Of a stretch of 64,000 nucleotides of DNA, positions 163 to 25,157 are shown piece by piece. Numbering within the stretch: position 1 is the stretch's first letter; each line of letters begins with the position of its first letter. Source of the DNA: Promethearchaeota archaeon. GTDB taxonomy: Archaea; Asgardarchaeota; Lokiarchaeia; Sigyniarchaeales; SOKP01. A program made the position numbers and the translations under genes. The notes below the pieces were generated by a model, which was not told the origin of the DNA, did not search any database, and saw nothing but the letters and a program-made list of their open reading frames with translations. The stretch spans positions 224,001 to 288,000 of the forward strand of contig JAEOUA010000008.1 of assembly GCA_016839555.1 (NCBI GenBank), written 5' to 3'.

Positions 163-282
163 TAACTCTTAAGAATTCATTGAATTATAAAGATAATTTA
201 TAAATTGAAGTTAGAAACAATCTTTTTAACTATAAGGTTTAAGGGCAAATTAAAAAATTAAGTCAAAATTTTCGAGGAAGAT

Positions 283-1028: not shown

Positions 1029-1828
1029 ATGAGTAAAGAAAAAATCAAAAAGGAAAAAAAAATAGATTTTTTGAAATTAGTTGACAATATTTCCTACAAT
1101 AATAAAAAGGTAATTGATAAAAAAAACAGTTTTCAGAAAATTGGATGGAATACTCCCGTTAAAGCAGAAGGCAACCCTCAAGACATAGTAAATGAAATAG
1201 TCAATTTAATAGAAAGTAATTACAATAAATTTGGAACTTGGGGAAATGCATTTGATTATATATTAGATTTAATTCTCTATACACTTACAAATCAAGAAGA
1301 AAAATATCTTTCTGTCGCTAAAGAAATTAATAAAGACGCAATTCTGGTAATCCCCAAAATTTTCGGTCTTCTTTTAGATGCTTTCTGCAATAAGTATTTA
1401 ATCTATGACTATTTAGGTCAAGTGTATATGAGAATAGCATATAAAAGCAAACAAGAATATTTTGGGCAGTATTTTACTCCATTCAATCTTGCAACTCTAT
1501 TGGCTACCATATTAATTCCAGATCCAAAGAAAGTGATTGAAGACGCAATAATAAGAGGAAAGAAAATCATGTTAAACGAGCCTGCAATGGGCTCGGGAGT
1601 GCTTTTTCTAGCCATTAAAAAAATTGTCATTGAAACTATCGGATTAGCGGGGCTGGATAATTTTCAGTTCATCGGGCAAGACATAGACGGGGTTACGTGA
1701 AAATGGCAAAACTCCAAATGATTATGACGGATTATCGCTATATGGCTAACTTTCTATTGGTAAGATATTCAGAAATTAGAAAAATGATTAGAAGATTACA
1801 TAAAAATCCTAATGGGATCAACAGATAA
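1029..1828 (+). pseudogene. N6-adenine DNA methyltransferase (short N6_Mtase type), frameshifted
   Basis: Motifs DYLGQVY, GQYFTP, EPAMGSG and GQDID. After DIDGVT the frame hits TGA 1698-1700, but the -1 frame continues VKMAKLQMIM... to TAA 1826-1828, consistent with a 1-nt deletion. Confidence 0.7.
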
Positions 1829-1975
1829 AGTACCGAGCTTCAATTTTATTTATAATGCCACACTGATGAAATATGTAGATGGGAAAAAAATTTTTGTTTG
1901 GAATAGTTATCTTTTCTTTTTTATTTTCTAAATTAACATTTTTTAAATTTTAGTATAAAATATGCTAATTTATAA

Positions 1976-2060
1976 GTTTATATCTATATATACGATGTTA
2001 ATATTCATATAAACTCACTTAGTTTACATCTATATTAACATTGTTTATACCTATATAAAC
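1976..2060. promoter_or_regulatory. Array of four 18-bp imperfect palindromes, GTTTA-N8-TAAAC
   Basis: 1976 GTTTATATCTATATATAC; 1997 GTTAATATTCATATAAAC; 2022 GTTTACATCTATATTAAC; 2043 GTTTATACCTATATAAAC. Directly upstream of a wHTH gene. Confidence 0.6.
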
Positions 2061-2079
2061 TATGAAATAGAAGTGTAAG

Positions 2080-2613
2080 ATGTCGATTAATGTTGGATTA
2101 ACCCATATTCAGAAAGTTTTATTGTTTTTATTAGCAAACAAAAGTAAGACCAGAATAATTCATTTTCAAGACATACAAGAACATTTAAATAGATCAAAAA
2201 GCCAAGTATCATTACTCTTAACAAGAATGGAAGAAGAAAATCTTATAAACCGATCCTATGTACGACCTCAACCTATTGGGATAACTGATCACGGAGAAGA
2301 AAGAATTAGGAATGAATGTATTGCAATTTTTAGATCTTATTTGTTTTCTCCTAATAAGAAAAAAGCAAAATCTAAAAAAGATCAGGAGAAGAACATTCTT
2401 AAACTAAAAAAGCAAAAAATTTTACAAATGTTAAACCTTGCTACAATTCAAAAATTTTTAGAAAAAATGGAAGAAATGATTAATACAGAATTTGGAGATA
2501 TCGATGATTATGTTATGAAGGCTAAATTAAATGAATTAAAAAATACTCTAATTGATAAAATTGATTTTTTACTAAGCGAGTTGTTTAAAAGAATTAAGCA
2601 AAAAATAAAGTAA
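2080..2613 (+). CDS. MarR-like winged-helix transcriptional regulator
   Basis: N-terminal LTHIQKVLL...DIQEHLNRSKSQVSLLLTRMEEENLI...ITDHG; helical C-terminus. Confidence 0.65.
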   Translation: MSINVGLTHIQKVLLFLLANKSKTRIIHFQDIQEHLNRSKSQVSLLLTRMEEENLINRSYVRPQPIGITDHGEERIRNECIAIFRSYLFSPNKKKAKSKKDQEKNILKLKKQKILQMLNLATIQKFLEKMEEMINTEFGDIDDYVMKAKLNELKNTLIDKIDFLLSELFKRIKQKIK

Positions 2614-2814
2614 GTAGCATTGTTACAGACCGTCGAATTTCATTTTAAAAAAGTATGTTCTTTAAGGGTTACTTCTCCATTAATAAGGAAATTAATTTGA
2701 AACATTGTGTAGGACACTATTGCTAAGTTTTATTTTATTGGACTTATTTTCTAAGTATTTTTACATTTTGATTTCAAATGGGTGGTGAAGGTTGGTATAA
2801 ATATCATAAGAAGA

Positions 2815-2847
2815 GAGGCTACGATTCTACCACTATACCACGAGCGC
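2815..2847 (-). other. 5'-half tRNA fragment (Gly-like), putative att site
   Basis: Minus strand reads GCGCTCG TG GTAT AGTGGTA GAAT C GTAGC CT C: acceptor 5' strand, D-arm and anticodon 5' stem. It stops in the anticodon loop and no 3' half is nearby. Confidence 0.65.
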
Positions 2848-2998
2848 TCAAAACAAGAATTACATAGTAAAAAACTTAAGAAACAATTAAAATTTAACGA
2901 AATATTTCTTAGGATTCAATAAATGATTTTTAGCTACGAAAAATATTATTTTTATAAAAAAAATAATAATATAAAAAATTAGTTTTATTTTAGAGATA

Positions 2999-3700
2999 AT
3001 GCCAGCTAAAAACCCAAATTTTAAAATACTTTACTTTACACCTCACGCGGATGACATAGAGCTTGGAGTGCCCTTTATGTAACTGGAAACCTTAAGATTG
3101 GCCAATGAAGTTGTTGAAGTTATTATGACCAATAATGAATACGGAATTACAGAAGATGAGTTTAAAGGAAAGCGTCTCACCAAAATTAGGGAATTAGAAG
3201 TTAAAAAAGCAAAAAGCATATTCGAGAATGCAACTGAAAACAAAATTCGAGTCATTAGGATGGGATATATCAATGGGCACTTATCATTAAATAAAAGCTC
3301 TATAAATATTGTGTCTAATTTACTTCTTTGAGAAAAGCCAAACATTATTTTTATTCCCGATCCGTAGTACGTGCAAGATTTTCATGCAGATCATCTAAAT
3401 ACTGGACTTTGGGTATATTTTTCTCTAAAAAAAATTGGGAAATCATTCAAACCCCAGAGATTATTTTATTATTACTCTACGTAAAATTTTTATTATCTGA
3501 AATGCAATTGGAAAGATTTTGATATAGTAGAAAAAGCTATAGCAAGCCATAAAAGTCAATATAGTCCTTTGGAAAGTAAATTAATTATTTGGTTCTACAA
3601 TAAATTTAATATATTTTGGCATTATTTAAAGAAGGGGAAGATAAAAATAATATATTTGGTTGCTTCATTTTTTTATACTATTCAAAATAACCTTTTTTAA
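2999..3700 (+). pseudogene. PIG-L/LmbE family deacetylase pseudogene
   Basis: PHADDIELG, MTNNE, HADH and KAIASHKSQ motifs are present across stops (TAA 3080-3082, TAG 3365-3367, another near 3482) and a frameshift near 3325. Confidence 0.75.
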
Positions 3701-3766
3701 TATTTATTTGAATTATTTCAATTTTATTTTAGTTTTAAGATTTTCACTCTGCTTTTTTTTAAAAAT

Positions 3767-4402
3767 TTAAGAGAGATTAGATTTAATTAATGAGAGAGCT
3801 TTATTTACTCGGTGTTTAATTTCATCAAAATTTTTGGTTGAAATCAATTCTTTTTTAACAATCCAGCTTCCTCCACATGCAAAAACATTTTTTAATTTAA
3901 GGTATTTTAACAAGCTTTCATTATTAATACCACCAGTAGGCATGAATTTTGCTTTCGGATATGGACCAGAAAGTATTTTTAACATTTTTGTACCTCCAGA
4001 TATGTCTGCAGGATAAAATTTAAAATGTGTCAAACCTTTTTCTAACCCCCATTCGATAAATGTAGGAATATTTAAACCGGGAATGATAGGAATTCTATTT
4101 TCAACACAATAATTAATTATAGTAGGATTAAAACCCGGAGTAACAATAAACATAGATCCCGCATTCATTGCTGCTTTAACCTGTTCGATTTTTAGTACTG
4201 TTCCAGCTCCAATAACCATCTCTGGAAAATTTTTTTTAATTAATGATATACATCTAGCTGCAACATCAGTTCTAAATGTAATTTCAATGATTGGCAGATT
4301 TACGTCTAAAAGAGTCTTTGCCAATGGAATAGCATTGTCAATATTTTCTATAACAACCACAGGAACTAATCTTAGTTCTTCAAACTTTTTATAAATTTCC
4401 AT
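3767..4402 (-). CDS. eda: KDPG/KHG aldolase
   Basis: EITFRT, GAGTVL, FIVTPG, KFYPA, FMPTGGI, GGSW. Confidence 0.9.
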   Translation of the reverse strand: MEIYKKFEELRLVPVVVIENIDNAIPLAKTLLDVNLPIIEITFRTDVAARCISLIKKNFPEMVIGAGTVLKIEQVKAAMNAGSMFIVTPGFNPTIINYCVENRIPIIPGLNIPTFIEWGLEKGLTHFKFYPADISGGTKMLKILSGPYPKAKFMPTGGINNESLLKYLKLKNVFACGGSWIVKKELISTKNFDEIKHRVNKALSLIKSNLS

Positions 4403-4487
4403 TTTTCTTAATAATTTGAACTTCTAATTTGATTTATAATATTTTTTTATTAATTGTAATTATATTTTAAATTCTTAATACCAGTTC

Positions 4488-6308
4488 TCAGATTTTATAT
4501 TTTTCTATCTGATAACATAAATTTACCATAGGTACTATAATTTGAAAATCGAGTATGTTCTGATTCTTTAAGAACTCTAATTCTTTTTCATCAACAGTGT
4601 TATAAGCAAACATCCCAAAATGATGAACAATTAGTAATTTAATACTAGTTTTCTTACATAAATCAAGTACTTCAGAGATTTTAAAATTTCCTGGGATACC
4701 ATGTTTTAGCCGATATTCATCTCTACCATTAATTGGAAGAAGAGCAATATCAACCTTATAGGATTTGATTTTATCATCAAGTCCACTATAGAAAATGCAA
4801 TCACCCGAATGATACATATTAATATCTCCAAATCTAAAAATATATCCTAAAAATGAATGTTCTCCTTTTTCATTTATTTTAAACTCCTCATGGGCAGCAG
4901 GAATGGGAAAAACTTTTATATAATCGTTTAATGTAATTCCCTGGTACACATTCGCTCCGATTATTTGCCCTTTTTTTATACCCCTTTTTACTGCTTCTTC
5001 AATTTCAGCCTTAGGAACAATAAATTTACACTCTGGATTATAATTTGAAATAAAACTTAGAGTTTCTGGGTCTAAATGATCTGTATGAGGATGAGTACTA
5101 AATACAAAATCAACATTTCTTACTTTTTCGGGAGATATCGGAGGATCCATAAGTCTTATATGAGGAAAAATAGTCCCTTTATATTTTTTAGACAAGTAAT
5201 CTGATAAATATGGATCGATGATAATATTCTTTCCTCTATATTTAATAATAAATCCTGCTTGTCCGAGCCATGTTAGTTGAATTTCATTTATATTATTATT
5301 TTCGTTTGTAAGAAAGGATTCTATAGAATTTATTTTTTTTATATGTAATGCAATTTGCTTTTGTCTAAAAAATTTTATAATGTTATTAACGGCAGTTTTG
5401 GCGGCTCTATTAATACTCTCAATTGTATATCCTCCAATATGAGGTGTTATTATTGTGTTTTTGTGTTTAAGTAAATCATCTAATTGAGGAGGTTCATTAT
5501 CGTATACATCAGTTGCATAGATTCTTATTTTTCCAGAATTTAATCCTTCTAAAATTTCATTTTTATCAACAACTTTTGCTCTAGCAGTATTAATAAGAAT
5601 TATACCCTCTTTCATTTGATTTATAGCTGATTTATCAATTAAGGGTTTATCAGTGGGAGGACAATGGAGGGTAATAATATCACTTTCTTTAAAAAGTACT
5701 TGTAAGGAAGTAAAATTAAAAGAAGGTAATGGATTTAAGTTTTTATCAGGATTGATATCATAGGCAAGAACTTTCATACCTAAAGAAAATGCCATCTTAC
5801 AGACCCTTTTTCCGATATTTCCAATTCCAATTACTCCTAAAGTTTTATTAGCAATCTCCATACCTTTAACACGAGACCAAATTCCCTTTTTAAGTTGATT
5901 ATTACAAAAAGGAATAGATCGAACTGAACTGAAGATCAAAGCCATAGTGAGTTCAGCAACTCCTTGCGCATTTGATTCTGGTGCAATTTTAATTTTAATT
6001 CCTAACTCATTTGCTGCATTTAAATCGATATTATCAATCCCGACTCCATTTCGGCTAATAATTTTTAGATTTTTTGACTTTTCAAGAACTTTTTTTGATA
6101 TTGGTTCAATTCCCGCAAGATAAGCTTCACATTGAGGTAATATTCTAAGTTGATCTTCTTCCGTAGGTTGAACACCTGGATTGGCAAATATGAGTTCGAA
6201 TCCCTCCTTTTCAAGCTTTTCCAAAGAGGGATGACCATTTTTAGTTATTGATCTTGGAGTAATATAAACTTTTTTCATATTATCATTTACCAATTTTAGG
6301 ATTTCCAC
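4488..6308 (-). CDS. Fusion of a D-2-hydroxyacid (phosphoglycerate-DH-like) dehydrogenase and an MBL-fold (UlaG-like) hydrolase; start may be ATG 6279
   Basis: N-terminal RNGVGIDNID, GIGNIG, INTAR, TPHIGG. C-terminal WLGQAGF, IDPYLS, THPHTDH, HSGD, LPING. Confidence 0.85.
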   Translation of the reverse strand: MEILKLVNDNMKKVYITPRSITKNGHPSLEKLEKEGFELIFANPGVQPTEEDQLRILPQCEAYLAGIEPISKKVLEKSKNLKIISRNGVGIDNIDLNAANELGIKIKIAPESNAQGVAELTMALIFSSVRSIPFCNNQLKKGIWSRVKGMEIANKTLGVIGIGNIGKRVCKMAFSLGMKVLAYDINPDKNLNPLPSFNFTSLQVLFKESDIITLHCPPTDKPLIDKSAINQMKEGIILINTARAKVVDKNEILEGLNSGKIRIYATDVYDNEPPQLDDLLKHKNTIITPHIGGYTIESINRAAKTAVNNIIKFFRQKQIALHIKKINSIESFLTNENNNINEIQLTWLGQAGFIIKYRGKNIIIDPYLSDYLSKKYKGTIFPHIRLMDPPISPEKVRNVDFVFSTHPHTDHLDPETLSFISNYNPECKFIVPKAEIEEAVKRGIKKGQIIGANVYQGITLNDYIKVFPIPAAHEEFKINEKGEHSFLGYIFRFGDINMYHSGDCIFYSGLDDKIKSYKVDIALLPINGRDEYRLKHGIPGNFKISEVLDLCKKTSIKLLIVHHFGMFAYNTVDEKELEFLKNQNILDFQIIVPMVNLCYQIEKYKI

Positions 6309-6895
6309 TTAGGATTATCTATTAATGTAGGTTTATCATTCTGTTCTATCATTAATTTTCTAAAACCTTTCTTTTCTATAGTTTTGTAATCATGACCCGC
6401 ATCAGCCCTAAAACTAAAGAATAGAATTAATGGCTGATCTGGTGATATGTTTATACTTCTATGAGCAAATCTTGGTGGAACATATACAGAAATTCCGGGT
6501 TTCATTTCTCTTACTTCTACATCTCCTTCTGGATTTTCCATTAATAAATAACCATAACCTCTAAGGCAATAATATATTTCTGCTGTTTCTATTTTCTCAT
6601 GGAAATGCCCTTTTGTCATAAAATATTCTGCACCAACCTTTCCGGGATATACTATAGTTGTTCCATAAGCTAACTCTGAGGGATCTGCTTTAATACCCAA
6701 ATCATAAAATTCATAAACAATCAGATCCCTTCTTTTAACAATTTCTTTTAGTTTATTATTATCAAAATACATACCTTCCATATCCGAAAGCATCCGTTTT
6801 TTTGATTCAATTTCCGGAGAAATTCCAGTCTCCAAATTAAATTTAATCACTTTAGATTTTAGCTCATTATTCTTTCTCTTCATCTTTATTTGCAA
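6296..6895 (-). CDS. Cupin-type (archaeal) glucose-6-phosphate isomerase family
   Basis: PGKVGAEYFMTKGHFH, AEIY, YVPP, AHRSIN, AGHDY. Confidence 0.85.
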   Translation of the reverse strand: MQIKMKRKNNELKSKVIKFNLETGISPEIESKKRMLSDMEGMYFDNNKLKEIVKRRDLIVYEFYDLGIKADPSELAYGTTIVYPGKVGAEYFMTKGHFHEKIETAEIYYCLRGYGYLLMENPEGDVEVREMKPGISVYVPPRFAHRSINISPDQPLILFFSFRADAGHDYKTIEKKGFRKLMIEQNDKPTLIDNPKWKS

Positions 6896-6902
6896 ACACT
6901 TT

Positions 6903-7850
6903 TTATTTTGCTTCTATAGCTATATTAGAAATTTTTTCAAATTCTGGACCACTTGTTGGAATTTTTATATGGAAAACTTCAGCAATAACCCTCGTCCAAC
7001 CATATAGAAAATAGGTCCAACCATTTTCTACATGAAGCTCTTTTTCTTTTTGTTGGGCTCTTGCTTGATCTAAAAATACCAGATCTCCTCTATAATTATA
7101 ATCCCAAGCAAAACCTTTTTTTGGAAATTCTGCATTATTTGTAATGGGGGATCCTGGAGAATCCTTACCTAAACCCGTTCCATTAATAATTAATGATCCT
7201 TCTTTAAGTTGATTTACAATTGCATCATTATCTTCCGAATTAGGATTATGAAAATATTCCATATTTATACCTGTATTTATTTGCTCATGAATTATTTTCA
7301 TTTTTTCTAATCTTGGGGTGCTTCTATTTGCTATATAAAGTTTTGAGGGTTTATTATCGGATTCGAGTTCTTGCATAATGTATGCTGTTAATGCCAATGA
7401 TGCGCCCCCCGCTCCTATAATAAATATTTCTGCATTAGTTTTTTTCCAATGATTCTTAGGAATAAAAGACTCAAAGGCTAATCCAGCAGTGATAGGATCT
7501 TTAGCATGCCCCCATAATTCTCCATTTCTCTTGGAGATACAGCTTACCTCACCTAAAAGTTTTGTATAATATCCCACACTATCGAAGTAATCCTTTGCTG
7601 CTTCATAGAGATCGATTTTATGTGAGGTCACTAGTGCACCTAAAGAATTTTTGTCCTTCTTTATAAATTTTACAACTTTTCTATATTTTTCTGGTTGGTC
7701 ATGAATTTTATAGTTAATTCCTATAAATGATTTAGATATTCCAAAATATTCTGCCCATTTTGGATACACACGCATAATTGAGGATTGATGAGTTGAAACT
7801 CCGATATAATAAAATGTAGGAACTTTTCTTGGTGTAAAGTCAAAATTCAA
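6903..7850 (-). CDS. Shikimate dehydrogenase-like oxidoreductase
   Basis: GALVTSHK, IGAGGA, IANRS, INGTGLG, DYNY. Lacks the canonical AroE HSxSP and NTD motifs. Confidence 0.7.
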   Translation of the reverse strand: MNFDFTPRKVPTFYYIGVSTHQSSIMRVYPKWAEYFGISKSFIGINYKIHDQPEKYRKVVKFIKKDKNSLGALVTSHKIDLYEAAKDYFDSVGYYTKLLGEVSCISKRNGELWGHAKDPITAGLAFESFIPKNHWKKTNAEIFIIGAGGASLALTAYIMQELESDNKPSKLYIANRSTPRLEKMKIIHEQINTGINMEYFHNPNSEDNDAIVNQLKEGSLIINGTGLGKDSPGSPITNNAEFPKKGFAWDYNYRGDLVFLDQARAQQKEKELHVENGWTYFLYGWTRVIAEVFHIKIPTSGPEFEKISNIAIEAK

Positions 7851-7882
7851 TACCTATCATCTATAGTCAATTTTATTAGTTT

Positions 7883-7924
7883 TATGTTAATATATGTTAA
7901 AATTTATTAACATTTATAAACATT
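7883..7924. promoter_or_regulatory. Imperfect ~42-bp palindrome in a divergent promoter; candidate operator
   Basis: TATGTTAATATATGTTAA-AATTTA-TTAACATTTATAAACATT, with core TGTTAA-N6-TTAACA. Confidence 0.4.
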
Positions 7925-8030
7925 AAATACTTAAAATAAAAATTATTAATTTGTTCTAATTAAAAATAAAATAGAAAAATATAATTATAATTCTATAAAT
8001 CCAATAAAAATTAAAGTTCCTTTCTTAATA

Positions 8031-9527
8031 ATGGTTATTTTAACTATTGATCTTGGGACCCAAAGTATTAAGGCAGGATTAGTGGATTATGATGGGACTA
8101 TTTTACAAATAAGCCAAGAACCGCAACAAGTGAATCTTCCCAAAAAAGGCTGGGCTCAACAGAAACCTGAATTGTGGTGGAGATTAACTAAAAGTGTAAT
8201 TAAAAATGTTCTCCAAAAATCATCTATAAAAAAAAATGAGATAAATGGCATAAGTACATGTGGTCAAATGCATGGTCCAGTTGGGATTGATAAAAAGGGT
8301 AATATTACGACGGAATGGACTCAAATTTGGATGGATAAACGCTCTAAAAGCATTTGTGAGGAAATAAGAAATCACTACGACCAATCGCAATTGGCACAAA
8401 TTACAGGAAATCCAATAACAACTGGGTGGTCTGGAGTAAAAGTTAGATGGATAAAAGAGAATCAACCAAATATTTACAATAAAACTAAATGGTTTCTTGT
8501 ACCAAAAGACTTCATTAATTTCAAATTATCTGGTGTTATAGCAACAGATCCAAGTGAAGCATCAGGAAGTTATTTATTTGATATAAAAAAAGAGAATTAT
8601 TCCACAGAAATGGGAACAATTCTTGATATTGACATTCAAAAATTTGCAAAAATATATAAATCATATGATATAATTGGAAGTCTTAAAGAAGACATTGCGA
8701 GAGAGATTGGATTACCAAGTAAGATACCAATAATAGCTGGGGGAGGAGATTTTATTGTTTCATTATTAGGGATAGGAATGATTGAGGAGGGGACAGCTGT
8801 TGATATGAGTGGTACTAGTACTTTATTCGTTGTAAAAAAAGACAACCCTATTATTCATCCATTAGTTCAGAATTTAAAGCATGTTATTAGTGGTTGGACT
8901 CCTTTTACAATGTTAGATTGTGGAGGGTTAAGTATTGCTTGGTATAAAGATTTTATTAATTCAATGAAAGAAGAAAAAATATCATATGAAGAAATGATTG
9001 CGATGGCTGAAAAGATACCAATTGGTTCTAATGGATTATTATTTTATCCCTATTTACTTGGAGAAAGACGAACCGAAAATATATATGCAAAAGGAGCATT
9101 TTTTGGAGTCACTTTAACTCATAAAGTTTCACATTTTATAAGAGCAATAATAGAGGGAGTTGCTTTAGCAGTAGGGAAAGATGTAGAAATATTTAGAAAG
9201 TTAGGGGTTAAAATTAAACAAGTTTATTGTCTGGGGGGAGCCACGCGAAATAAATTACTCTATGAAATAAAAGCAAATATTATGCAACTACCTCAAATTT
9301 TGACCAATGAACCAGAAGCAAGTTTACGTGGAAATGGAATATTAGCAGCATATGGCTTAGGATTAATTAATAATATAAAACAAATTGCAAACCCAAGAAC
9401 TCTTAAAATAGAGATAATCAAACCGGATAAAATTTTAGCTAACAAATATCTATTCTTGTTAAAAAAATTTAAAAAAATGTATAAACACATGTTAGGATAC
9501 GAAAATGAAGATGTTCATTATATCTAG
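8031..9527 (+). CDS. FGGY-family carbohydrate kinase (xylulokinase-like)
   Basis: IDLGTQSIK, GQMHG, WMDKR, PKDF, GGGD, GTS, PYLLGER, AIIEG, GGA. Confidence 0.9.
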   Translation: MVILTIDLGTQSIKAGLVDYDGTILQISQEPQQVNLPKKGWAQQKPELWWRLTKSVIKNVLQKSSIKKNEINGISTCGQMHGPVGIDKKGNITTEWTQIWMDKRSKSICEEIRNHYDQSQLAQITGNPITTGWSGVKVRWIKENQPNIYNKTKWFLVPKDFINFKLSGVIATDPSEASGSYLFDIKKENYSTEMGTILDIDIQKFAKIYKSYDIIGSLKEDIAREIGLPSKIPIIAGGGDFIVSLLGIGMIEEGTAVDMSGTSTLFVVKKDNPIIHPLVQNLKHVISGWTPFTMLDCGGLSIAWYKDFINSMKEEKISYEEMIAMAEKIPIGSNGLLFYPYLLGERRTENIYAKGAFFGVTLTHKVSHFIRAIIEGVALAVGKDVEIFRKLGVKIKQVYCLGGATRNKLLYEIKANIMQLPQILTNEPEASLRGNGILAAYGLGLINNIKQIANPRTLKIEIIKPDKILANKYLFLLKKFKKMYKHMLGYENEDVHYI

Positions 9528-9753
9528 ACTGAAGAAAAGTGGTGTATTTTAATTTACAAAATTATCTTCAAATCGAATTAGTTAAGAGAAATAATAATAC
9601 ATAAATTAAAATTAAATCCAAATTATCAAGTAAGATTTTGAAAAAGAAATATAAAAATACCAATGATTCTTTTTAAAAATGTTTATTATTTGTTATTGAA
9701 AAGAATTCTATATAATTTACATCATTTTAATGAAAAATATATAATTCTTAACA

Positions 9754-12339
9754 TTATCGATGTTCTGTTCTAGAAATGACTTCATCTTGTATTTCTTTTC
9801 CCAAGTCTGTAAAATATGCACTATATCCTCCGACTTTAACTATAATATCTCTATATTTTTCTGGATCTTTTTGAGCTGCCCTTAATGTTTTTGTTGAGAC
9901 TACAGTAGGTTGTAGTTGTTCGCCACCTAATTTAAAATAAGTTTTTATTAATGAAATCCATTTTTTCTTCGCTTCTTCAGTTTTTCCAATTCCAGAGGGA
10001 TGCATTCGAATATTTACAGCACACCCACATACATGTTTGTAGTCAAGTGCAGCAACAGATCGAAGAACTCCAGTTGGACCGTGTTCTTCTACATTATAGG
10101 GATTACAACTTGCAGCAAAAGGTTTTCCTGCCAATCTGCCATCGGGTGTCGCTAGTGATATCCTTCCATCGTAAGTATGGGAGGTCATACTAATAATAAA
10201 TGGTGCAAAAACGCCACCCTTATATGTTTTATACTTATAAGTTTCTTCAAATATATGATTTGTTACTTTTTTGGCTAATTCATCACACTCAGGATTTCCA
10301 TTCCCCCATTTTCCTTTTAAATCCATAATTAGAGAATGAATCCATTCATAACCTTGAGTAAAGTTATTATCAACCGCATCAACAAGCTCTCTTAATGTAA
10401 ATTTTTTTTCTTCGAAAACTAATTTTTTAATAACATATAAAGAATCAACCAAATTAGCTACACTGTTTAAAATTAATATTCCTTCAGCGTCATATTTAGC
10501 TCCTCCTTTTGTAACATCCTTTTTATTTTTTAAACAACCCTGTACAAAAGCTGATAAAAAGGGCGCAGGTAAATATTCAGCATATATTTGGTCTCGAATT
10601 TTTGTTGCTTCGACTATATGTTGGATAACATAATCTGATTGCTTATAGAAAGCTTCAAGGAAATCTTCAAATGTTCTAAATGTGTCTGGTTTACCCGTCT
10701 TAGGACCAATATTTTTCATCAATCCTACTAATGCCTTAGAATCGCCATTTCGAAGGGCTGTATCAAGTGTATGACTTAATAAAATTGCTGAAAAACTAAT
10801 TCCACCTGTTTTTCCAGGAGGGGACATATCTACACAACCAGTAATGCAATAACCTTGCGCATCTTTTTTAGTAATTCCCCGATTCATTAATGCTTTTATA
10901 GCAATATCATCATTTAACATAGAGAGGCTTGATATTCCATTATAACTAAGGTCAGCAACCTTTAAATATAATTCTTCTGGTGATTTATCGTGAAATCTTA
11001 CTGCAAAATTAAGGCAGGTTTTTGACCGGGCAGCTACTTCTAACATTATATAGGTTAGTTCATTTGTAGCATCTTCACCAGTTTCTGTAAGACCGCCTAA
11101 AGTAATTGGTTCGGAGCCTTCATATCTCTGGCTAAATTCTGAGACAGAATCTGAATAAGGACGAACATTATGGCTCATTACCTTTAATACTAATTCTTCC
11201 AGCAATTCTATGGCTTCTTCTCGAGCAATTCTTACTTCTTCAATATCGCGCTTATAATATGGATATAAAAATTGATCGAGACGTCCTGGCCCATGTACAT
11301 TAAATGGAAGTGCCAAATCAACAGAAGTTTTAATTATCCAATATAATTGTACTGCTTCTCGGAATGTTTTAGCCGGCTTTGTTTTTACATTATTACATAT
11401 TTTATACATTTTTGTTAATATAGCCTTTCTCTTAGATTCATTAGTATTGTTAATTTCTTCTTGAAGGTTTTTAGTAAGCCTGTTAGCAAATATCATTATC
11501 CCCTCAAGAGCAATATCAAGAGATTTTAAAAAATCTATTTGTTCTTTTGTTAAATTATCATCTTTCTCAATTTCCTCTCGAACCTCCTTTTGCATGTTTA
11601 ATAATCCTTTTTTAATTGCAGTCTCATGGTCAAGGATTATATGCCCTTGCCATCCACCAATAACAGCATTACTTGAAATTATTGGTTGATCTTGGGATTT
11701 TTTTATTGGTACATGATTAATAAAGTCATAAAAATCCCCTTTATAAATGTTATTTTCTAAAAGCTTTTTCTCAATTAAATCAGAAATATTCTTTCCTTTC
11801 CAATATGGGATTAATTTTTTTAGAAGTAATTCCTTATCCTCTTCTTTTATTTTAAATCCATTTATTTTTCTCTGTTCTAAAGAGTCAGATCCCATAGTTG
11901 GTATAGCAGCACCCATTTTTTTAGTATTTGCTATAAATTCAATAATATTTATTCCCTTATTACTCATATATTCTATAAAAGATTTGTTAAATTCCCTTTC
12001 AAATTTCTTCATTGCTTTTTCGTCAATTTCATATTCAAGTACTCTGTTCCATATACCACGCTCTAAATCTAGAGGTATTCCAAGGAAACTTTCTGTCCAT
12101 TTACCTGCAATACGATCATCTGGATCTATGTAGATCTGCATGTTTTCGTAAACATTTTTCATAGATAAGGCAATTCTGACGCCAACTGATAAATTACTTT
12201 TTTCAGTCTCAGACCACTTTTCAGTATAATATTTCGCTCTTTCTAGTGAAATTAGAGTCTTATCATCAAGAAACCTTCTACGAATGCGTTTTATTCTTTC
12301 ATTTTCCTTATTAATGATTTGGATATTTTGATCACTCAT
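9754..12339 (-). CDS. Glycyl radical enzyme (PFL2-like), substrate unknown
   Basis: GRLDQFLYP, Cys loop TGCVD, ATPDGR, Gly loop VKVGGYSAYF, QDEVISRT. Confidence 0.9.
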   Translation of the reverse strand: MSDQNIQIINKENERIKRIRRRFLDDKTLISLERAKYYTEKWSETEKSNLSVGVRIALSMKNVYENMQIYIDPDDRIAGKWTESFLGIPLDLERGIWNRVLEYEIDEKAMKKFEREFNKSFIEYMSNKGINIIEFIANTKKMGAAIPTMGSDSLEQRKINGFKIKEEDKELLLKKLIPYWKGKNISDLIEKKLLENNIYKGDFYDFINHVPIKKSQDQPIISSNAVIGGWQGHIILDHETAIKKGLLNMQKEVREEIEKDDNLTKEQIDFLKSLDIALEGIMIFANRLTKNLQEEINNTNESKRKAILTKMYKICNNVKTKPAKTFREAVQLYWIIKTSVDLALPFNVHGPGRLDQFLYPYYKRDIEEVRIAREEAIELLEELVLKVMSHNVRPYSDSVSEFSQRYEGSEPITLGGLTETGEDATNELTYIMLEVAARSKTCLNFAVRFHDKSPEELYLKVADLSYNGISSLSMLNDDIAIKALMNRGITKKDAQGYCITGCVDMSPPGKTGGISFSAILLSHTLDTALRNGDSKALVGLMKNIGPKTGKPDTFRTFEDFLEAFYKQSDYVIQHIVEATKIRDQIYAEYLPAPFLSAFVQGCLKNKKDVTKGGAKYDAEGILILNSVANLVDSLYVIKKLVFEEKKFTLRELVDAVDNNFTQGYEWIHSLIMDLKGKWGNGNPECDELAKKVTNHIFEETYKYKTYKGGVFAPFIISMTSHTYDGRISLATPDGRLAGKPFAASCNPYNVEEHGPTGVLRSVAALDYKHVCGCAVNIRMHPSGIGKTEEAKKKWISLIKTYFKLGGEQLQPTVVSTKTLRAAQKDPEKYRDIIVKVGGYSAYFTDLGKEIQDEVISRTEHR

Positions 12340-12414
12340 AGTAATTTTATAAATATATAAAATTTGTATATTATTATTTTACTAAATTATATTATATTAG
12401 TATTATTTATAAAT

Positions 12415-12447
12415 ATTGTTAACATTTATTAATGATTGTAAACATTT
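12415..12447. promoter_or_regulatory. Pair of TGTWAACA boxes with a 20-bp period in the GRE/activase divergent promoter
   Basis: ATTGTTAACATTT and ATTGTAAACATTT, sharing TTAACATTTAT with the 7883-7924 site. Confidence 0.35.
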
Positions 12448-12499
12448 TTTAATTAATAATAAATTCCCCAATTTTTATATTAAAATCTAATTTGAAAAT

Positions 12500-13408
12500 A
12501 TGAAGGGCATTATTTTTGATATTCAACATTATGCAATTTTTGATGGACCGGGAATAAGAACATTAGTTTTTTTGAAAGGGTGTCCTTTATGTTGCAAATG
12601 GTGTCATAATCCTGAATCTCAGTTACTAAAACCACAATTATCATATTTTCAAGAAAAGTGTGAATTATGTGGGAAATGTGTTAAAAGTTGTGATAAAAAT
12701 GCTCTCAAAATATTTGAAGATGCCGTTATTTGGGATAAAGATTTATGTGATATGTGTGGAAAATGTGTTGAAACGTGTCCTAATAATGTCCTTGAAATTA
12801 TCGGAGAAAAAAAAGAAGTTAAGGAGATAGTAGAAGTTGTATCAAGAGATAAGATTTTCTATGAAGACTCTGGAGGGGGTGTAACAATCACAGGTGGAGA
12901 ACCTACAATGCAATTACCATTTTTATTAGAATTATTAACTAATTTTAAAAAAAAAGGAATTCAGACAGCTATAGAAACATGTGGATATTTTAATGAGAAT
13001 ATTATAGAAAATTTAACACATTTGGTGGATCTCTTTTTATTTGATATTAAACTTATTGATCCAGAAAAACATATCAAATATACTGGTGTATCAAATAAGA
13101 AAATTTTAAAAAATTTTAAAAAAATCTATGAAAAAGTGGGATCCAAAAGAATTATATGCCGAATACCTTTAATTCCAGGAATAAATACAAATACAAAAGA
13201 TATAGACCAGATTATTACATTTTTAAAGGATATAGATTATAAAGGGGCTGTTCATCTTATGCCTTATAATAAAATGGCGAAAACTAAATATGAAAAAATA
13301 GGCAGAAGTCAAGACTATATAGATTTTGGGGACTTGAAAGAAAAGAAAATAGAAATAATTATTGAAGAAATAGAAAAAGAATCTTATGAAGTAATTTGTA
13401 ATGAATAA
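12500..13408 (+). CDS. Glycyl-radical activating enzyme (radical SAM with ferredoxin insert)
   Basis: DGPGIRT, GCPLCCKWCHNPES, two CxxCxxCxxxC motifs, GGEP. Confidence 0.92.
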   Translation: MKGIIFDIQHYAIFDGPGIRTLVFLKGCPLCCKWCHNPESQLLKPQLSYFQEKCELCGKCVKSCDKNALKIFEDAVIWDKDLCDMCGKCVETCPNNVLEIIGEKKEVKEIVEVVSRDKIFYEDSGGGVTITGGEPTMQLPFLLELLTNFKKKGIQTAIETCGYFNENIIENLTHLVDLFLFDIKLIDPEKHIKYTGVSNKKILKNFKKIYEKVGSKRIICRIPLIPGINTNTKDIDQIITFLKDIDYKGAVHLMPYNKMAKTKYEKIGRSQDYIDFGDLKEKKIEIIIEEIEKESYEVICNE

Positions 13409-13440
13409 TAAGTATTATAAATATTGAATGAGGAACAGAA

Positions 13441-14847
13441 ATGGAAACAAAACAATTTGAAAAAAAGCTTGATACAAAATCAACAAACTTTATGATTTCC
13501 TATAGCTTTGGGCAATTGTCGGACGTCATTGGCTATCAAATGTTTACTTTTCTTATATTCACTTTTTATTATGCTATTATTGGCTTAAACGTGAATTGGA
13601 TTACAATAGGATTTATTATTTGGAGTGTTTGGAATGCTTTTAACGATCCAATGGTGGGTTATATTTCTGATCGATTGAACACAAAATGGGGGAGAAGAAA
13701 ACCACTTGTATATGTTGGAATTATTCCGTTATTAACTTTAATGGTATTATTATGGACACCTCCCTTGAATAGCAAAATTATTTCATTCATTTATTTTATT
13801 ATAATTATCTTAGCATTTGATACAGCTTATACATCATTTTCTATGGGTCAAGCGACTTTGTTTCCTGAGCTATTTAAAAACTTAGAGGAGAGGGCAAAAG
13901 CGAATAATATTCGACAAATTTTTACTATATTTGGATTAATTATTGCATTCATAATGCCAACTTTTTTCATACCTAAGTTGACAAATCCTCAATATATTGG
14001 AGGATATATATTAGCAGGAATCGTTGCTATGATCTTAATGGGCTTCTTTGGCATCATTTTTATCATATTTGGGTTAAAAGAACCTAAAGAATTTTCTGAA
14101 GACTATAAAGATACACCACCTTTTTTCACTTCTTTAAAAATATCATTAAAAAGAAAATCATTTAAATGGTACGTATTAGTTCATTTTGTAAACTGGTATG
14201 TTTATGGAATGTTGCCGACAATATTACCATTATTCGCAGAATATGTTTTAGGCATAGGAGAAGGGGAAACATTTTATATAGGTCTTTTACTTGGAGTCAC
14301 TTTTATTTCAGCATGTATTTTCATAGCTCTCTGGAAATACGTAGCAATTAAAATTGGTATAAGGAAAGGTTTTATGATTTCTATGCTTATATTCATAATC
14401 ACATTGTTCCCCAATTTATTCATAAATAATGTGATTCAGGGATTTATTGTATTCTTTTTAATTGGAATAGGATTAGCAGGATCTTTATTTTTCTTAGATA
14501 TTACAATCGCTGCGGTTATGGATGAAGATGAACTTGAGACAGGAGTACGTAGAGCGGGAGGAATCTATGGTATTAGCACATTTATATTAAGATTTGCTAC
14601 AATATTTATGTTTTTAACAATCAGCCTTGTATTCAATAGCACTGGATGGACTGTCTTTGATCCTATAGGAACAGTAAACACGCAATTAGGCTTAAGGATT
14701 TTGATTTTTGTATTTCCCGCTATAGCCCTCATTATAGGAATTCTTGGAATGTACAAATTTCCTATCACAGTAGAAAAATATACCGAAATGAAAAAAGAAC
14801 TTAGAAAATTACATGAACATAAACTTGAAAAAATCAGAAACACATAA
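13441..14847 (+). CDS. GPH-family (MelB-like) MFS sugar transporter
   Basis: WNAFNDPMVGYISD, WGRRKP, DEDE..TGVRR.G; about 12 TM segments. Confidence 0.85.
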   Translation: METKQFEKKLDTKSTNFMISYSFGQLSDVIGYQMFTFLIFTFYYAIIGLNVNWITIGFIIWSVWNAFNDPMVGYISDRLNTKWGRRKPLVYVGIIPLLTLMVLLWTPPLNSKIISFIYFIIIILAFDTAYTSFSMGQATLFPELFKNLEERAKANNIRQIFTIFGLIIAFIMPTFFIPKLTNPQYIGGYILAGIVAMILMGFFGIIFIIFGLKEPKEFSEDYKDTPPFFTSLKISLKRKSFKWYVLVHFVNWYVYGMLPTILPLFAEYVLGIGEGETFYIGLLLGVTFISACIFIALWKYVAIKIGIRKGFMISMLIFIITLFPNLFINNVIQGFIVFFLIGIGLAGSLFFLDITIAAVMDEDELETGVRRAGGIYGISTFILRFATIFMFLTISLVFNSTGWTVFDPIGTVNTQLGLRILIFVFPAIALIIGILGMYKFPITVEKYTEMKKELRKLHEHKLEKIRNT

Positions 14848-15045
14848 TAATGTAATTTAAGAATAATATTCAAAGGAATAATTGAAAATTTTAATTTAAC
14901 TAAAATTTTATTTTCATTTATTAATTATATTGAAAAAGAATTTTTAATGAGCTTTTAATAATATAATAATAAAAAAAAAAGGATTAATAACCAAATATTT
15001 TGAAAAACTTTATTTATAAATAAATTAAATATCGGATAATGGAAT

Positions 15046-15819
15046 ATGCTTGCAACGGAAAGAAGAAATCAAATAGCTAAACTAGTAAAAACTGAAGGGT
15101 CTATAACTATTGAGGATTTAACAAATATGTTCGATGTATCAAGAATAACAATCTGGAAAGACCTTAAAATGCTTGAAGAGCGTGGATTTCTCGCAAGAGT
15201 ACATGGAGGGGCTATGAGATTAGATAAATTAAATCCAGAAGAACAGGAATTTCCTATACGCAAACAGAGTTCATCTTTAGAAAAAAAGAAAATAGCTCAA
15301 TATGCTGCTAAAAATTACGTAGAAGATAACCAGATACTTTTTTTAGATGGAGGGACCACTGTCGTAGAGATGATACCATATCTAAATAAGAAGAATCTAA
15401 CCATATTGACTAATGGGTTTTTTACCTTGATAAAAGCAGCAAATTACTTGTCTGATATAAATTTCATAAGTCTTGGAGGAATTTTTAGAAAACCCTCTTA
15501 TACTTTTGTTGGCCCAGATACAGAAGATTTTATTTCACGTTATAAAATTGATACCGCATTTGTAAGTGCCTATGGAATCTCACTTAAAGATGGACTGATG
15601 GATCCTAACCCACTCGATATGGAAATCAAAAAAATTATGTGTGAAAATGCTAATAAAATTTTTGTCTTAATAGATTCTAGTAAATATGAGAAACATTCAT
15701 TGACTACTTTTCTAAATCTGGAAGAAATTGATCATTTGATAACAGATAACGGAGCTCCCGCTAAATTTTTGGAAGAATTAAAAAATCGTGGTATTGCTAT
15801 TGATATAGTAAAAATATAG
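15046..15819 (+). CDS. DeoR/GlpR family transcriptional regulator
   Basis: ERRNQI, VSRITIWKDL, RVHGGA, LDGGTT, DSSK, LITD. Confidence 0.92.
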   Translation: MLATERRNQIAKLVKTEGSITIEDLTNMFDVSRITIWKDLKMLEERGFLARVHGGAMRLDKLNPEEQEFPIRKQSSSLEKKKIAQYAAKNYVEDNQILFLDGGTTVVEMIPYLNKKNLTILTNGFFTLIKAANYLSDINFISLGGIFRKPSYTFVGPDTEDFISRYKIDTAFVSAYGISLKDGLMDPNPLDMEIKKIMCENANKIFVLIDSSKYEKHSLTTFLNLEEIDHLITDNGAPAKFLEELKNRGIAIDIVKI

Positions 15820-15980: not shown

Positions 15981-17120
15981 ATGGTGAATTATGTTTACAA
16001 AGAATATAAAACGGCATTAAACAAATTAAAGTTTCCAGACAGCTACTTTTGGTGTCGCTATACTCTTAATCCATATGTGGGATGCCAACATGCATGCGTT
16101 TACTGTGATGCTCGGAGTAAACGATATTATTTAGAAAATGTTGAGGAGGATGTAATAATTAAAGTAGGAATAGCGGAGAAATTAGAAAAAAAAATAAAAA
16201 ATTCAAGAACATTATTACCAGATGTTATAGGACCTGGGGGAGTTTGTGATGCGTACCAACCAATAGAAAAAAAAGTAAAAAATACACGAAAAATTTTAAA
16301 AGTCTTGAGAAAATATAAATTCCCTGTGAATATTGCTACAAAATCCGATTTAATTGTTAGAGATATCGATATTTTAAAAGAAATTGCAAAAGATACGTGG
16401 TGTACAGTAGGATTTTCCATAACCACTACAGATGGAGAATTAGCAAATTTTTTAGAACCGTATTCCTCTCCTCCAGATAAAAGATTCAATGCAATGAAGG
16501 AAATTAAGAATAATGCTCCAAATATACAGACAGGAACTTATTTTATGCCAATAATTCCATTTCTGGAAGATAATGATAAGAATTTAGATGATGTTATTAA
16601 AAAAACAAAAGAAAAAGTAGGCGATTTTGTTGTATTCGCACCGGGCTTAACTTTAAGAGATAATCAGAAAGAATATTTTATAAATAAGCTGAAAAATAGT
16701 AAATATAGAGACATAGTAGAACCCTTATTAAATCTTTATAGTGAAGGATATGATTCTGAACAAATGAACAGCTATATTTTAACTCAATATAAAAAATTAT
16801 TAAATTTATGCAAGAAATATAATTTGAATATACGAGAAAAACGATGGATTCCTTCAGATTATAGAAAATGGAATTATTTAATAGCAGAAAAGTTATTGAA
16901 TGAAGAATATTTGAATACAATTCAGGGAAAGCCAAATGATAGAATAAAATGGGCTGGCTTATATCTCAATAATCTTAAAGAATCCATCATTGATGTATAT
17001 AGAAGAGGAAAATTACATAATCTTAGAAATTTTAATTCGAAAATAATTGAATTTGTACAACCTTATTTAGAAAAAGGATTAGAAGAACAGAAAAAGAAAA
17101 GTTTGGATAGGTTCTTATGA
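15981..17120 (+). CDS. SplB-like radical SAM protein (putative DNA repair)
   Basis: NPYVGCQHACVYC, DAYQPIE, TKSDLIVRD. Confidence 0.8.
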   Translation: MVNYVYKEYKTALNKLKFPDSYFWCRYTLNPYVGCQHACVYCDARSKRYYLENVEEDVIIKVGIAEKLEKKIKNSRTLLPDVIGPGGVCDAYQPIEKKVKNTRKILKVLRKYKFPVNIATKSDLIVRDIDILKEIAKDTWCTVGFSITTTDGELANFLEPYSSPPDKRFNAMKEIKNNAPNIQTGTYFMPIIPFLEDNDKNLDDVIKKTKEKVGDFVVFAPGLTLRDNQKEYFINKLKNSKYRDIVEPLLNLYSEGYDSEQMNSYILTQYKKLLNLCKKYNLNIREKRWIPSDYRKWNYLIAEKLLNEEYLNTIQGKPNDRIKWAGLYLNNLKESIIDVYRRGKLHNLRNFNSKIIEFVQPYLEKGLEEQKKKSLDRFL

Positions 17121-17869
17121 ATAAAAATATCGATCAAATGATCAACAATATTAAAGGTAAATTGAAACAAACAGCTCCAGATTTAACTAAAGATCAAATT
17201 GAAAAAAGAAATAAAATTTTAAAATCTGAGGACCCTAAATTCTTTGGTTATGGTCATAAAATAGGTGAACTCGAAAAAATAGTACAGCAAATTGAAAATC
17301 AAACGGAATGCTCATATGAAGCGGCACTTGAAGTATTTAAAAATCTTATGAGTTCCCATATTCATGAAGAAAAATTTGCTGGATTCTTATTTATTAATCG
17401 TTTTAAAAGAGATTTTAACAAGGATTTAATCAAAATATTTAAAGAAGTAATCTCGAAATATTGCGATTCCTGGGCTTTATGCGATAGTTCTATGATTAAG
17501 GTTTTGGGTCCATATTTAGCTAAAAGAGGCAAAGAACAACTAGCAATAAGCACAATTAAATCATGGGCGAACTCGGACCTTTTATGGATAAGACGTGGTT
17601 CATTGGTTATTTATTTGAAAGCAATAATGATAAAAAAGGACTTCGATTATAACTTTCTAGTAAAACTAATAAAGCCATTAATAAATGATTCAGAACCATA
17701 TATACAAAAGGCAATTGCATGGCTTCTTAGGACATGCTCTCGCTATAAGCCAAAAATAATTTTTAGTTATTTATTGGAAAATAAAGAAAATTTTTCAAGA
17801 TCATTTTTAAGAGAAGCTGCTCAAAAGCTTTCAGATGCACAAAGAGAGATTATAATAGGAAAAAAGTGA
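17117..17869 (+). CDS. AlkD-like DNA alkylation repair protein
   Basis: SWALCD, W..S..LWIRR, YIQKAIAWLLR; ATGA overlap with the upstream gene. Confidence 0.8.
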   Translation: MNKNIDQMINNIKGKLKQTAPDLTKDQIEKRNKILKSEDPKFFGYGHKIGELEKIVQQIENQTECSYEAALEVFKNLMSSHIHEEKFAGFLFINRFKRDFNKDLIKIFKEVISKYCDSWALCDSSMIKVLGPYLAKRGKEQLAISTIKSWANSDLLWIRRGSLVIYLKAIMIKKDFDYNFLVKLIKPLINDSEPYIQKAIAWLLRTCSRYKPKIIFSYLLENKENFSRSFLREAAQKLSDAQREIIIGKK

Positions 17870-17953
17870 GAAAATCTATTATAAATATTAAAAATACATA
17901 ATTTAATTAGATTATAAGGTAACTCTAACTAATAAAAAAATACATAATTAACA

Positions 17954-23883: not shown

Positions 23884-23953
23884 CTCCACAACTTCTAAAT
23901 CATTTTCTTTTTTTTTTAACAATCTTTAATTTTTTTTAAAATTTTATTACATT

Positions 23954-25132: not shown

Positions 25133-25157
25133 ATTAAGTTAAACTTAATTTTCTATT

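Follow-up and report, generated by a model that had tools for sequence, protein, structure and literature searches.

A conserved, apparently undescribed sugar gene cluster around a divergent glycyl radical enzyme in Lokiarchaeia

The window analysed here is a 64,000-nucleotide stretch of the genome of a Promethearchaeota archaeon of the Lokiarchaeia (contig JAEOUA010000008.1, positions 224,001 to 288,000; G000:C7:224001-288000 in our genome set, where G000 is the window's own genome, with 29% GC). It contains a cluster centred on a glycyl radical enzyme (GRE), in which an initial annotation had listed nine contiguous genes in two divergent arrangements. A check of the open reading frames (ORFs) and profile searches recovered all nine at their coordinates and on their strands, with matches to the named families (Table 1). 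The locus has two divergent promoters, the FGGY kinase and GRE genes are convergent, and the GC content of the cluster is the same as that of the rest of the window. The cluster represents a real, conserved and apparently undescribed system.

Table 1 Features of the GRE cluster (window positions).
Feature	Position	Strand	Evidence
Eda, KDPG-type class I aldolase, dedicated paralogue	3767..4402	-	PF01081; TIGR01182 above cut-off
Fusion of PGDH-like D-2-hydroxyacid dehydrogenase (N-terminal) and UlaG-like MBL-fold lactonase (C-terminal)	4488..6278	-	UlaG entries 3bv6, 2wyl best; PGDH best
Cupin-type phosphosugar aldose-ketose isomerase (cupin PGI)	6296..6895	-	PF06560
SDH-like: shikimate-dehydrogenase-fold oxidoreductase, unnamed family	6903..7850	-	Fold, kept motifs
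40-bp imperfect palindrome, candidate DeoR operator	7884..7923	.	Four TGTTAA-type half-sites, offsets 10, 12, 10 bp
FGGY kinase, xylulokinase-like	8031..9527	+	Profile searches
GRE, GCVD/KVGGY subfamily, Loki type 1a	9754..12339	-	PF02901 + PF01228
Second operator-like site between GRE and activase	12411..12450	.	TGTTAACA (12417) + TGTAAACA (12437), 20 bp apart
GRE activating enzyme, radical SAM with ferredoxin insert	12500..13408	+	TIGR02494 above cut-off
GPH-family MFS transporter	13441..14847	+	Profile searches
DeoR-family regulator	15046..15819	+	Profile searches
KDPG, 2-keto-3-deoxy-6-phosphogluconate; PGDH, phosphoglycerate dehydrogenase; MBL, metallo-β-lactamase; PGI, phosphoglucose isomerase; SDH, shikimate dehydrogenase; SAM, S-adenosylmethionine.

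A genome search found the SDH-like, cupin PGI and DeoR genes as single copies in G000, which encodes four other GREs, all distant from that of the window (28-32%), and a second Eda elsewhere (C1), beside a KdgK-like kinase. The GPH transporter has more than 25 paralogues in the genome and is not conserved in the cluster, so it was dropped as a clue to the substrate. The ORF of the dehydrogenase-lactonase fusion is open from a GTG at 6308, with ATG 6278 as the likely start. The same fusion occurs in L041 (a locus of a close relative, 90-95% protein identity), G014 and G136 and is therefore not a sequencing artefact; elsewhere the two domains are split.

The predicted GRE model (pLDDT 88) shows the full GRE fold, with a TM score of 0.84 to glycerol dehydratase (PDB 1r8w). 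The Gly and Cys loops lie in a pyruvate formate-lyase (PFL)-type barrel, Cys-502 and Gly-838 are invariant, and the cognate radical SAM activase, which passes TIGR02494, adjoins the gene; cognate activases are 57-65% identical. The loops read GCVD (Cys-Val-Asp) and KVGGY, and there is an N-terminal insertion of about 60 residues. Active-site positions were taken from alignments: Cys-502 (10834-10836), Asp-504 (10828-10830), Gly-838 (9826-9828) and Glu-407 (11119-11121). Identity to solved GREs is at most 31% (Foldseek structural alignment), and the protein falls below every NCBIfam family cut-off.

Glycerol dehydratase is the best sequence match (E 4e-118), and the nearest solved folds are C-O eliminases, the glycerol and propanediol dehydratases. 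Both outscore YbiW/PflD (8id7/8id0), which the initial annotation had cited among GREs next to sugar genes; at 25-28% identity, and with CxD in place of the CxE motif that characterised GRE eliminases and isomerases share in the Cys loop (PMC13450708), the window GRE is not of the YbiW/PflD kind. The adjacent Cys-Cys pair of pyruvate formate-lyase is absent (GCVD; TIGR01255 119 bits vs a cut-off of 994), and the fumarate-adding enzymes BssA/MasD are among the weakest GRE matches. The enzyme falls in no characterised class, in agreement with its initial description as uncharacterised.

The CVD motif is present in all 82 sequences of the clade. Glu-407 is invariant there and is replaced by Leu in six CVE sister sequences; it aligns between Phe-333 and Tyr-339 of glycerol dehydratase and so may supply a second carboxylate. 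Arg-393, Arg-405, His-233 and His-721 are also invariant in the clade, His-233 being equivalent to His-164 of glycerol dehydratase.

The sister clade with GCVE loops (L017:6621-14103; L006-L013; L260-L285; L337-L362) has other neighbours: acetoacetate decarboxylase (ADC)-like and acyl-CoA dehydrogenase genes in 27 of 30 loci, HpnA-like and short-chain dehydrogenase/reductase (SDR) genes in 23-24 of 30, and sometimes a pair of uroporphyrinogen decarboxylase (URO-D)-family and corrinoid proteins. We regard it as a separate system and a second undescribed GRE pathway, perhaps lipid-related. These ADC, acyl-CoA dehydrogenase, HpnA-like and SDR neighbours were dropped as a guide to the substrate of the window GRE, since active site and context differ.

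Five activities encoded beside the GRE form an oxidative module: the SDH-like protein, cupin PGI, 2-hydroxyacid dehydrogenase, UlaG-like MBL lactonase and Eda, with no dehydratase; profile searches of the nine window genes gave no Edd/IlvD- or enolase-family enzyme. Eda keeps Glu-40, Arg-44, Lys-128, Thr-156-Gly-157-Gly-158 and Ser-179, comprising the Glu/Arg/Lys set and phosphate site of KDPG aldolases. The cupin PGI matches Pyrococcus PGI over its full length (E 4e-56), with the metal-binding His/Glu motifs aligned. The SDH-like protein keeps Lys-78, Asp-118, GAGG and NRS and has TM scores of about 0.7 to AroE and 5-ketofructose reductase at 14-20% identity. Despite the kept fold and Lys-78/Asp-118 it scores only 41 bits against the TIGR00507 cut-off of 200, and is not an AroE by this measure. 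We propose that it may act as an aldose-phosphate C1 dehydrogenase; 5-ketofructose reductase (PDB 7cok) is a precedent for a sugar substrate on this fold (PMC7954740). It shares the catalytic Lys and Asp with that enzyme and with shikimate/quinate dehydrogenases, and differs from them in a rebuilt substrate pocket, scores far below the aroE cut-offs and the lack of aro genes nearby. The residues of the PGI, the UlaG-like lactonase, the PGDH-like dehydrogenase and the KDPG-type Eda all fit phosphorylated substrates.

In a survey of 161 Lokiarchaeia genomes, the five module genes travel together in about 20, and cupin PGI was found in only 26. The module also occurs in Planctomycetota, Spirochaetota, Verrucomicrobiota and Alphaproteobacteria; there are at least 593 relatives of the SDH-like gene, and the module is found in several hundred bacterial genome loci. 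Among 48 long bacterial loci (16 kb or more), PGI is present in 44, the dehydrogenase in 42, the MBL protein in 41, the FGGY kinase in 42, Eda in 28 and a GRE in none. No GRE was seen at any of 73 bacterial module loci, and no recognisable dehydratase is among the gene families recurring beside the module there; one unlinked IlvD-type gene lies near the Marinovum locus. Annotated examples add ABC transporters, SDRs, glycerol dehydrogenase, aldo-keto reductase and RpiR. Culturable rhizobia and roseobacters carry the module, annotated there as shikimate dehydrogenase, PGI and phosphoglycerate dehydrogenase. Because Eda needs a 2-keto-3-deoxy acid, and the bacterial loci have neither a recurring dehydratase nor a GRE and nearly all contain the C2 dehydrogenase, the substrate of the module would already be a 3-deoxy compound.

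The FGGY kinase and a GCVD GRE adjoin the module in ten Lokiarchaeia genomes (G000, G002, G004, G026, G116, G118, G136, G137, G157 and G159) of three genera and in two layouts, one of them a single co-oriented run SDH-PGI-DH-MBL-Eda-FGGY-GRE-activase (DH, dehydrogenase). The lokiarchaeal GCVD GREs form one clade with two active-site types, type 1 being distinguished by positions 514 and 716 of active-site strands; the two often occur as tandem pairs with one common activase. Type 2 is found in 15 genomes and type 1a in five. All 16 genomes with either carry the FGGY orthologue, including all five with type 1a, and the orthologue occurs in only 20 of the 161 genomes; these counts include relatives that are not independent, and one of the underlying searches scored only five candidates per genome. 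The expected co-occurrence of GRE homologues with kinase, PGI and Eda genes is seen in both archaea and bacteria. Conservation of the neighbourhood is partial: the FGGY-GRE pair stands next to the module in ten genomes, but the window GRE is another paralogue than most of those linked to the module, among them the type 2 enzymes of the congeneric G002 and G004, relative to which it is inverted. The nine genes, proposed as one system, are linked and co-occur but are not one fixed unit, since the bacterial module lacks the GRE, a DeoR next to the cluster was seen in the window's genus only and the transporter varies.

In G118, the type 2 GRE beside the FGGY gene has become a pseudogene by losing about 690 internal codons (L080:15124-15674) and is followed by an intact type 1b GRE, an arrangement that we read as a paralogue swap in progress. 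This swap and the mixed GRE types argue that different paralogues have served the same module, as expected if related substrates converge on one product. Reduced loci of the form transporter-Eda-activase-GRE(1b), without kinase and oxidative module, occur in genus g11 (L174-L180, L184); they have flanking genes in common with the complete G118 cluster and resemble what deletions would leave behind.

Several other genes accompany parts of the cluster elsewhere. In five genomes (L366, L367, L369, L370, L068) the FGGY orthologue has, as a direct or close neighbour, a gene for a protein that we tentatively take to be ADP-ribosylglycohydrolase-like. A CrtI-like FAD oxidoreductase lies upstream of the module or GRE (L079:11130-14269; L240:6942-8498; L309:6-1058); it is 60-64% identical between Loki genus g2 and two bacterial loci and is not in the window cluster. 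L041 has an extra gene for a 249-residue membrane-protein-like product between FGGY and GRE (L041:7240-7989).

GCVD GREs were also found in anaerobic bacteria (Desulfobacterales, Syntrophaceae, Desulfomonilia, Zymogenaceae, Dehalococcoidia and Spirochaetota), where two or three paralogues are accompanied by one activase, a TetR regulator and a GPH transporter. Many of these clusters, 12 of 41 long loci with some redundancy, continue with an iron-dependent alcohol dehydrogenase (Fe-ADH), an orthologous FGGY kinase (51-55%) and a DeoC-family aldolase. A further group has cupin PGI, aldehyde dehydrogenase (ALDH), 2-hydroxyacid dehydrogenase and a dihydrodipicolinate synthase (DHDPS)-family aldolase, with or without DeoC (L287, L288, L309, L323, L336), and L382 has this PGI-ALDH-DH-DHDPS set without a GRE in view. 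ALDH would take the place of the SDH-like protein and lactonase, and the DHDPS-type aldolase that of Eda, so that the logic of the steps would be fixed. The bacterial aldolases pass the deoC cut-off. The cluster subfamily (L211:19077-19775; L210:15447-16148; L287:11862-12560) reads DFSIVRPE for DHTLLKP and has Tyr/His where canonical DeoC has Cys, the changed motifs lying near the donor pocket; deoxyribose-phosphate aldolase (DERA) takes ketone donors (PMC8097096). The query used found no DeoC in G000 or in any Loki genome with the module, and a DeoC ending was dropped for Lokiarchaeia.

The FGGY kinases of Loki, GRE-DeoC and GRE-less planctomycete loci form one well-supported clade, sister to the kinase of the rhizobial module. 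As this clade spans GRE-using and GRE-less modules, the kinase probably acts downstream of the GRE. L336:3202-4767 and L323:4885-6450 instead encode an LsrK-like kinase, which passes the autoinducer-2 kinase cut-off in L336; here a kinase from a deoxy-ketose family has replaced the FGGY enzyme non-orthologously. The gene before the kinase usually encodes an alcohol dehydrogenase, even at loci with no DeoC after it; the product may reduce 3-deoxyglucosone to 3-deoxyfructose or form an alditol. The Fe-ADH of the window genome (G000:C12:134753-135937) is next to the kinase in many relatives. It was dropped as a cluster-specific Loki marker, since it is present in 108 of the 161 genomes and only adjacency to the kinase is informative. 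URO-D-family and corrinoid proteins are encoded in or beside 8 and 7 of the 41 loci, in about four independent lineages.

The initial annotation had noted a related TGTTAA/TTAACA motif in both divergent promoters, and its half-sites indeed exceed chance: only 0.4% of 3000 random divergent pairs are as extreme in their repetition, a figure corrected for the free choice of hexamer. The 40-bp palindrome ranks in the top 0.3% of 1165 intergenic regions, and a post-hoc count of spaced dyads gives 5 for one promoter and 3 for the other, with values above 1 in only two of the 1165 regions. The longest word common to both promoters (11 nt) was rejected as evidence; these regions are 82% AT, such a word is ordinary there, and 38% of random divergent pairs reach 11 nt. 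Both operator-like sites are kept in L041, and G002 and G004, where 70% DeoR orthologues flank the cluster, again have half-sites in the corresponding regions. The window's DeoR is the only regulator of its family found in G000, and the repeated operator in the promoters is as expected of a DeoR regulon. We infer that DeoR may bind the motif and control both divergent promoters.

Gene identities, catalytic residues, linkage, co-occurrence, the promoter motif and the non-orthologous swaps were observed, and all reactions of the following scheme are our inference. The GRE and the module very probably belong to one pathway. Its hub is probably a 3-deoxy-2-ketohexose phosphate, because such a compound could pass through PGI, undergo oxidation at C1 and C2 and reach Eda with no dehydratase involved, and a DeoC-type aldolase could also cleave it directly; a 2-deoxy-aldose cannot be isomerised. 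Most likely this is 3-deoxy-D-fructose 6-phosphate, the one intermediate fitting all three endings, with the D-erythro configuration at C4/C5 that would suit both aldolases. Our preferred reading, with a probability of about 0.5, is that a hexose or hexitol loses its C3 oxygen to the GRE and is then oxidised by the module to KDPG, which yields pyruvate and glyceraldehyde 3-phosphate (GAP). A plain hexitol or rare hexose is a tentative candidate for the GRE substrate, and a 3-O-methyl or ether sugar is an equally tentative one.

The transporter might import a hexose, hexitol or glycoside. The activated GRE would abstract hydrogen from C2 and eliminate the oxygen substituent at C3 (OH, O-methyl or ring ether), with Asp-504, perhaps together with Glu-407, replacing the usual CxE base. 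A hexitol would give 3-deoxyfructose directly, an aldose would give 3-deoxyglucosone, which Fe-ADH would reduce to 3-deoxyfructose. The FGGY kinase would phosphorylate C6, and the cupin PGI would form 3-deoxyglucose 6-phosphate. The SDH-like protein would oxidise C1 to the lactone, the MBL domain would open it to 3-deoxy-6-phosphogluconate, and the fused D-2-hydroxyacid dehydrogenase would oxidise C2 to give KDPG for cleavage by Eda. In bacteria with the DeoC ending, the 3-deoxy-2-ketose phosphate would instead be split into hydroxyacetone and GAP. The GRE step would erase the C2/C3 stereocentres, which would explain the interchangeable paralogues. The order first envisaged, of import, radical dehydration or ring opening, phosphorylation, isomerisation and oxidation, lactone hydrolysis and aldol cleavage, is broadly supported by the comparison; the intermediate, left open there, now points to a 3-deoxy-2-ketohexose phosphate.

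The scheme works like a combination of radical anhydroglycolysis and an Edd-free Entner-Doudoroff route, without belonging to either. In anhydroglycolysis, YbiW/PflD act on 1,5-anhydrohexitol 6-phosphates (PMC13450708); there, too, a GRE abstracts the C2 hydrogen and cleaves a C-O bond to form a deoxy-ketose, epimers are handled by paralogous GREs with a single common product, and aldol cleavage to GAP and hydroxyacetone matches the bacterial DeoC ending. The proposed C3-O elimination would be that chemistry shifted by one carbon. Besides the divergence of the GRE, the predicted product differs (3-deoxy vs 1-deoxy) and would be isomerised and oxidised to KDPG, and the kinase and GPH transporter are not YbiW/PflD partners. 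The GRE 1,2-eliminases (glycerol dehydratase 1r8w, propanediol dehydratase 5i2g, HpfG, HypD) include the best sequence and fold matches and use the same activase type; unlike them, the window GRE has Asp for Glu, Phe and Ile for Asp-447 and Tyr-640 of glycerol dehydratase (our alignment) and a clade-specific Arg-405/Glu-407 loop. With the Entner-Doudoroff pathway (Pgi, Zwf, Pgl, Edd, Eda) the scheme shares the succession of isomerase, C1 oxidation, lactonase and KDPG aldolase. Here Edd is absent, the oxygen would be removed first by a radical enzyme, a D-2-hydroxyacid dehydrogenase would supply the 2-keto group, and SDH and MBL folds stand for Zwf and Pgl.

Several observations weigh against the C3-elimination reading. 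The glutamate of the characterised eliminases and isomerases is an Asp, and a radical route on common hexitols offers no obvious gain over a polyol dehydrogenase. No precedent for an aldose-phosphate dehydrogenase with the SDH fold was found, 5-ketofructose reductase being the nearest (PMC7954740), and Eda was found in only 28 of the 48 long bacterial loci. The module-linked GREs are not one clade (approximately unbiased test, p = 7e-5), and the window GRE is 62-66% identical to the others. Thirteen genomes that lack the FGGY orthologue have type 1b GREs (15 when types 1b/1c are counted), often arranged Eda-activase-GRE, for which the model does not account.

These last loci bear on an improbable alternative, in which at least the type 1 GREs are radical replacements of Edd: an aldonate or 6-phospho-aldonate, made by PGI, SDH-like protein and lactonase, would be converted by the same C2-H/C3-OH chemistry to KD(P)G for Eda. 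At least seven genomes without the rest of the module still have the set transporter-Eda-activase-GRE(1b), and the invariant Arg-393, Arg-405, His-233 and His-721 could bind an anion. However, this would leave no role for the 2-hydroxyacid dehydrogenase, fused to the lactonase here; the same module operates in GRE-less bacteria with no dehydratase recurring beside it; and DeoC, with which the bacterial GCVD clusters end, cannot use a keto-acid. The Eda-GRE loci themselves, with flanks shared with G118, resemble products of deletion.

Two further explanations are doubtful, somewhat more so than an Edd replacement. The type 1a GRE may be a passenger with an unrelated substrate, its true type 2 partner lost, while the module, like that of aerobic bacteria, would act on a deoxy-sugar taken up from outside. 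The inversion relative to G002/G004, the placement in another clade, the tandem type 1/type 2 pairs with a single activase and the differences at positions 514 and 716 would agree with this. Yet one motif is common to the promoters of GRE and module, the FGGY orthologue accompanies type 1a in five of five genomes, and G118, whose type 2 copy was destroyed by an internal deletion, retains the complete module with a type 1b GRE. Alternatively, the GRE may be a pentitol dehydratase, making a 2-deoxy-pentose for DeoC (C1-H abstraction, as in glycerol dehydratase) or a 3-deoxy-pentulose that the module would convert to pyruvate and glycolaldehyde phosphate. The deoC-level scores of the bacterial aldolases, the resemblance of the kinase to xylulokinase and the nearest GRE folds are in its favour, but DeoC escaped the query in G000 and the Loki module genomes, a 2-deoxy-aldose cannot pass the PGI step, and the cupin PGI and Eda keep hexose-6-phosphate-type residues.

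It is quite unlikely that the module oxidises a hexose keeping its C3 substituent (allose/psicose series or 3-O-methyl), with Eda releasing hydroxy- or methoxypyruvate and the GRE feeding in by another radical step. Some bacterial module loci hold a TIM-barrel protein that we read as psicose-3-epimerase-like, and the module needs no GRE in aerobes; against this, Eda keeps canonical KDPG residues, we know of no established Eda cleavage of 3-substituted keto-acids, and neither the tight GRE-FGGY linkage nor the DeoC ending would be explained. A role of the GRE in fumarate addition, as an alkyl- or benzylsuccinate synthase of the kind proposed for Asgard GREs (PMC8163825), is scarcely credible: the single Cys of the Cys loop and the archaeal host agree, but BssA/MasD match at E about 1e-60 vs 1e-118 for glycerol dehydratase and at 23% structural identity, and the context is sugar metabolism in both domains.

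Within the C3-elimination reading, two things hint weakly at a sugar blocked at C3, for example a 3-O-methyl hexose: radical chemistry would be needed, and methyltransferases are encoded nearby. The GCVD clade could then be a new GRE class cleaving ether bonds of such sugars with a CxD/Glu407 base pair and feeding a widespread but so far unrecognised 3-deoxyfructose pathway with three alternative endings, an extension that we consider unlikely; 3-O-methyl hexoses would release methanol to the corrinoid methyltransferases of several bacterial clusters. If true, it would provide the first functional class for an archaeal PFL-like GRE. According to a 2026 review, all PFL-like GREs of known function are bacterial and the archaeal clades lack validation (PMC13450708), and Asgard GREs were earlier read as hydrocarbon-activating enzymes (PMC8163825). 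The GCVD clade now has a setting in sugar metabolism in archaea and bacteria alike, a CxD loop without precedent and a shortlist of candidate substrates that can be tested. The 3-deoxyfructose proposal makes the module directly testable without anaerobic work and, if correct, would define an Edd-free route to KDPG. In titles and abstracts of the mostly open-access literature searched, no paper was found describing the module, catabolism of 3-deoxyfructose, 3-deoxyglucosone or 3-O-methylglucose, or GRE-DeoC-FGGY clusters; the gene set, an anaerobic sugar route around an uncharacterised GRE, had likewise not been recognised as a described pathway.

Around the cluster, the genes left of Eda differ in L041, so that window positions 1-3766 mark a synteny break; an ORF there (1029-1700) resembles a truncated DNA methyltransferase, with no Pfam match at 1e-6. 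Downstream of DeoR (15981-19561) are genes for a PA0069-like radical SAM protein, an AlkD-like repair protein and a sulfatase, and a tRNA-Arg(TCG) lies at 32780-32854. A URO-D-family and a corrinoid protein, followed by a putative second pair of similar lengths, are encoded at 56626-60508. Thermotoga-type myo-inositol genes, notable in an Asgard archaeon, occupy 21396-27766; a tie to the GRE cluster was rejected, as they are not among the neighbours seen at other module loci. IolG, IolM and IolN pass the NCBIfam cut-offs, and the IolO-like protein is below its own (230 vs 300).

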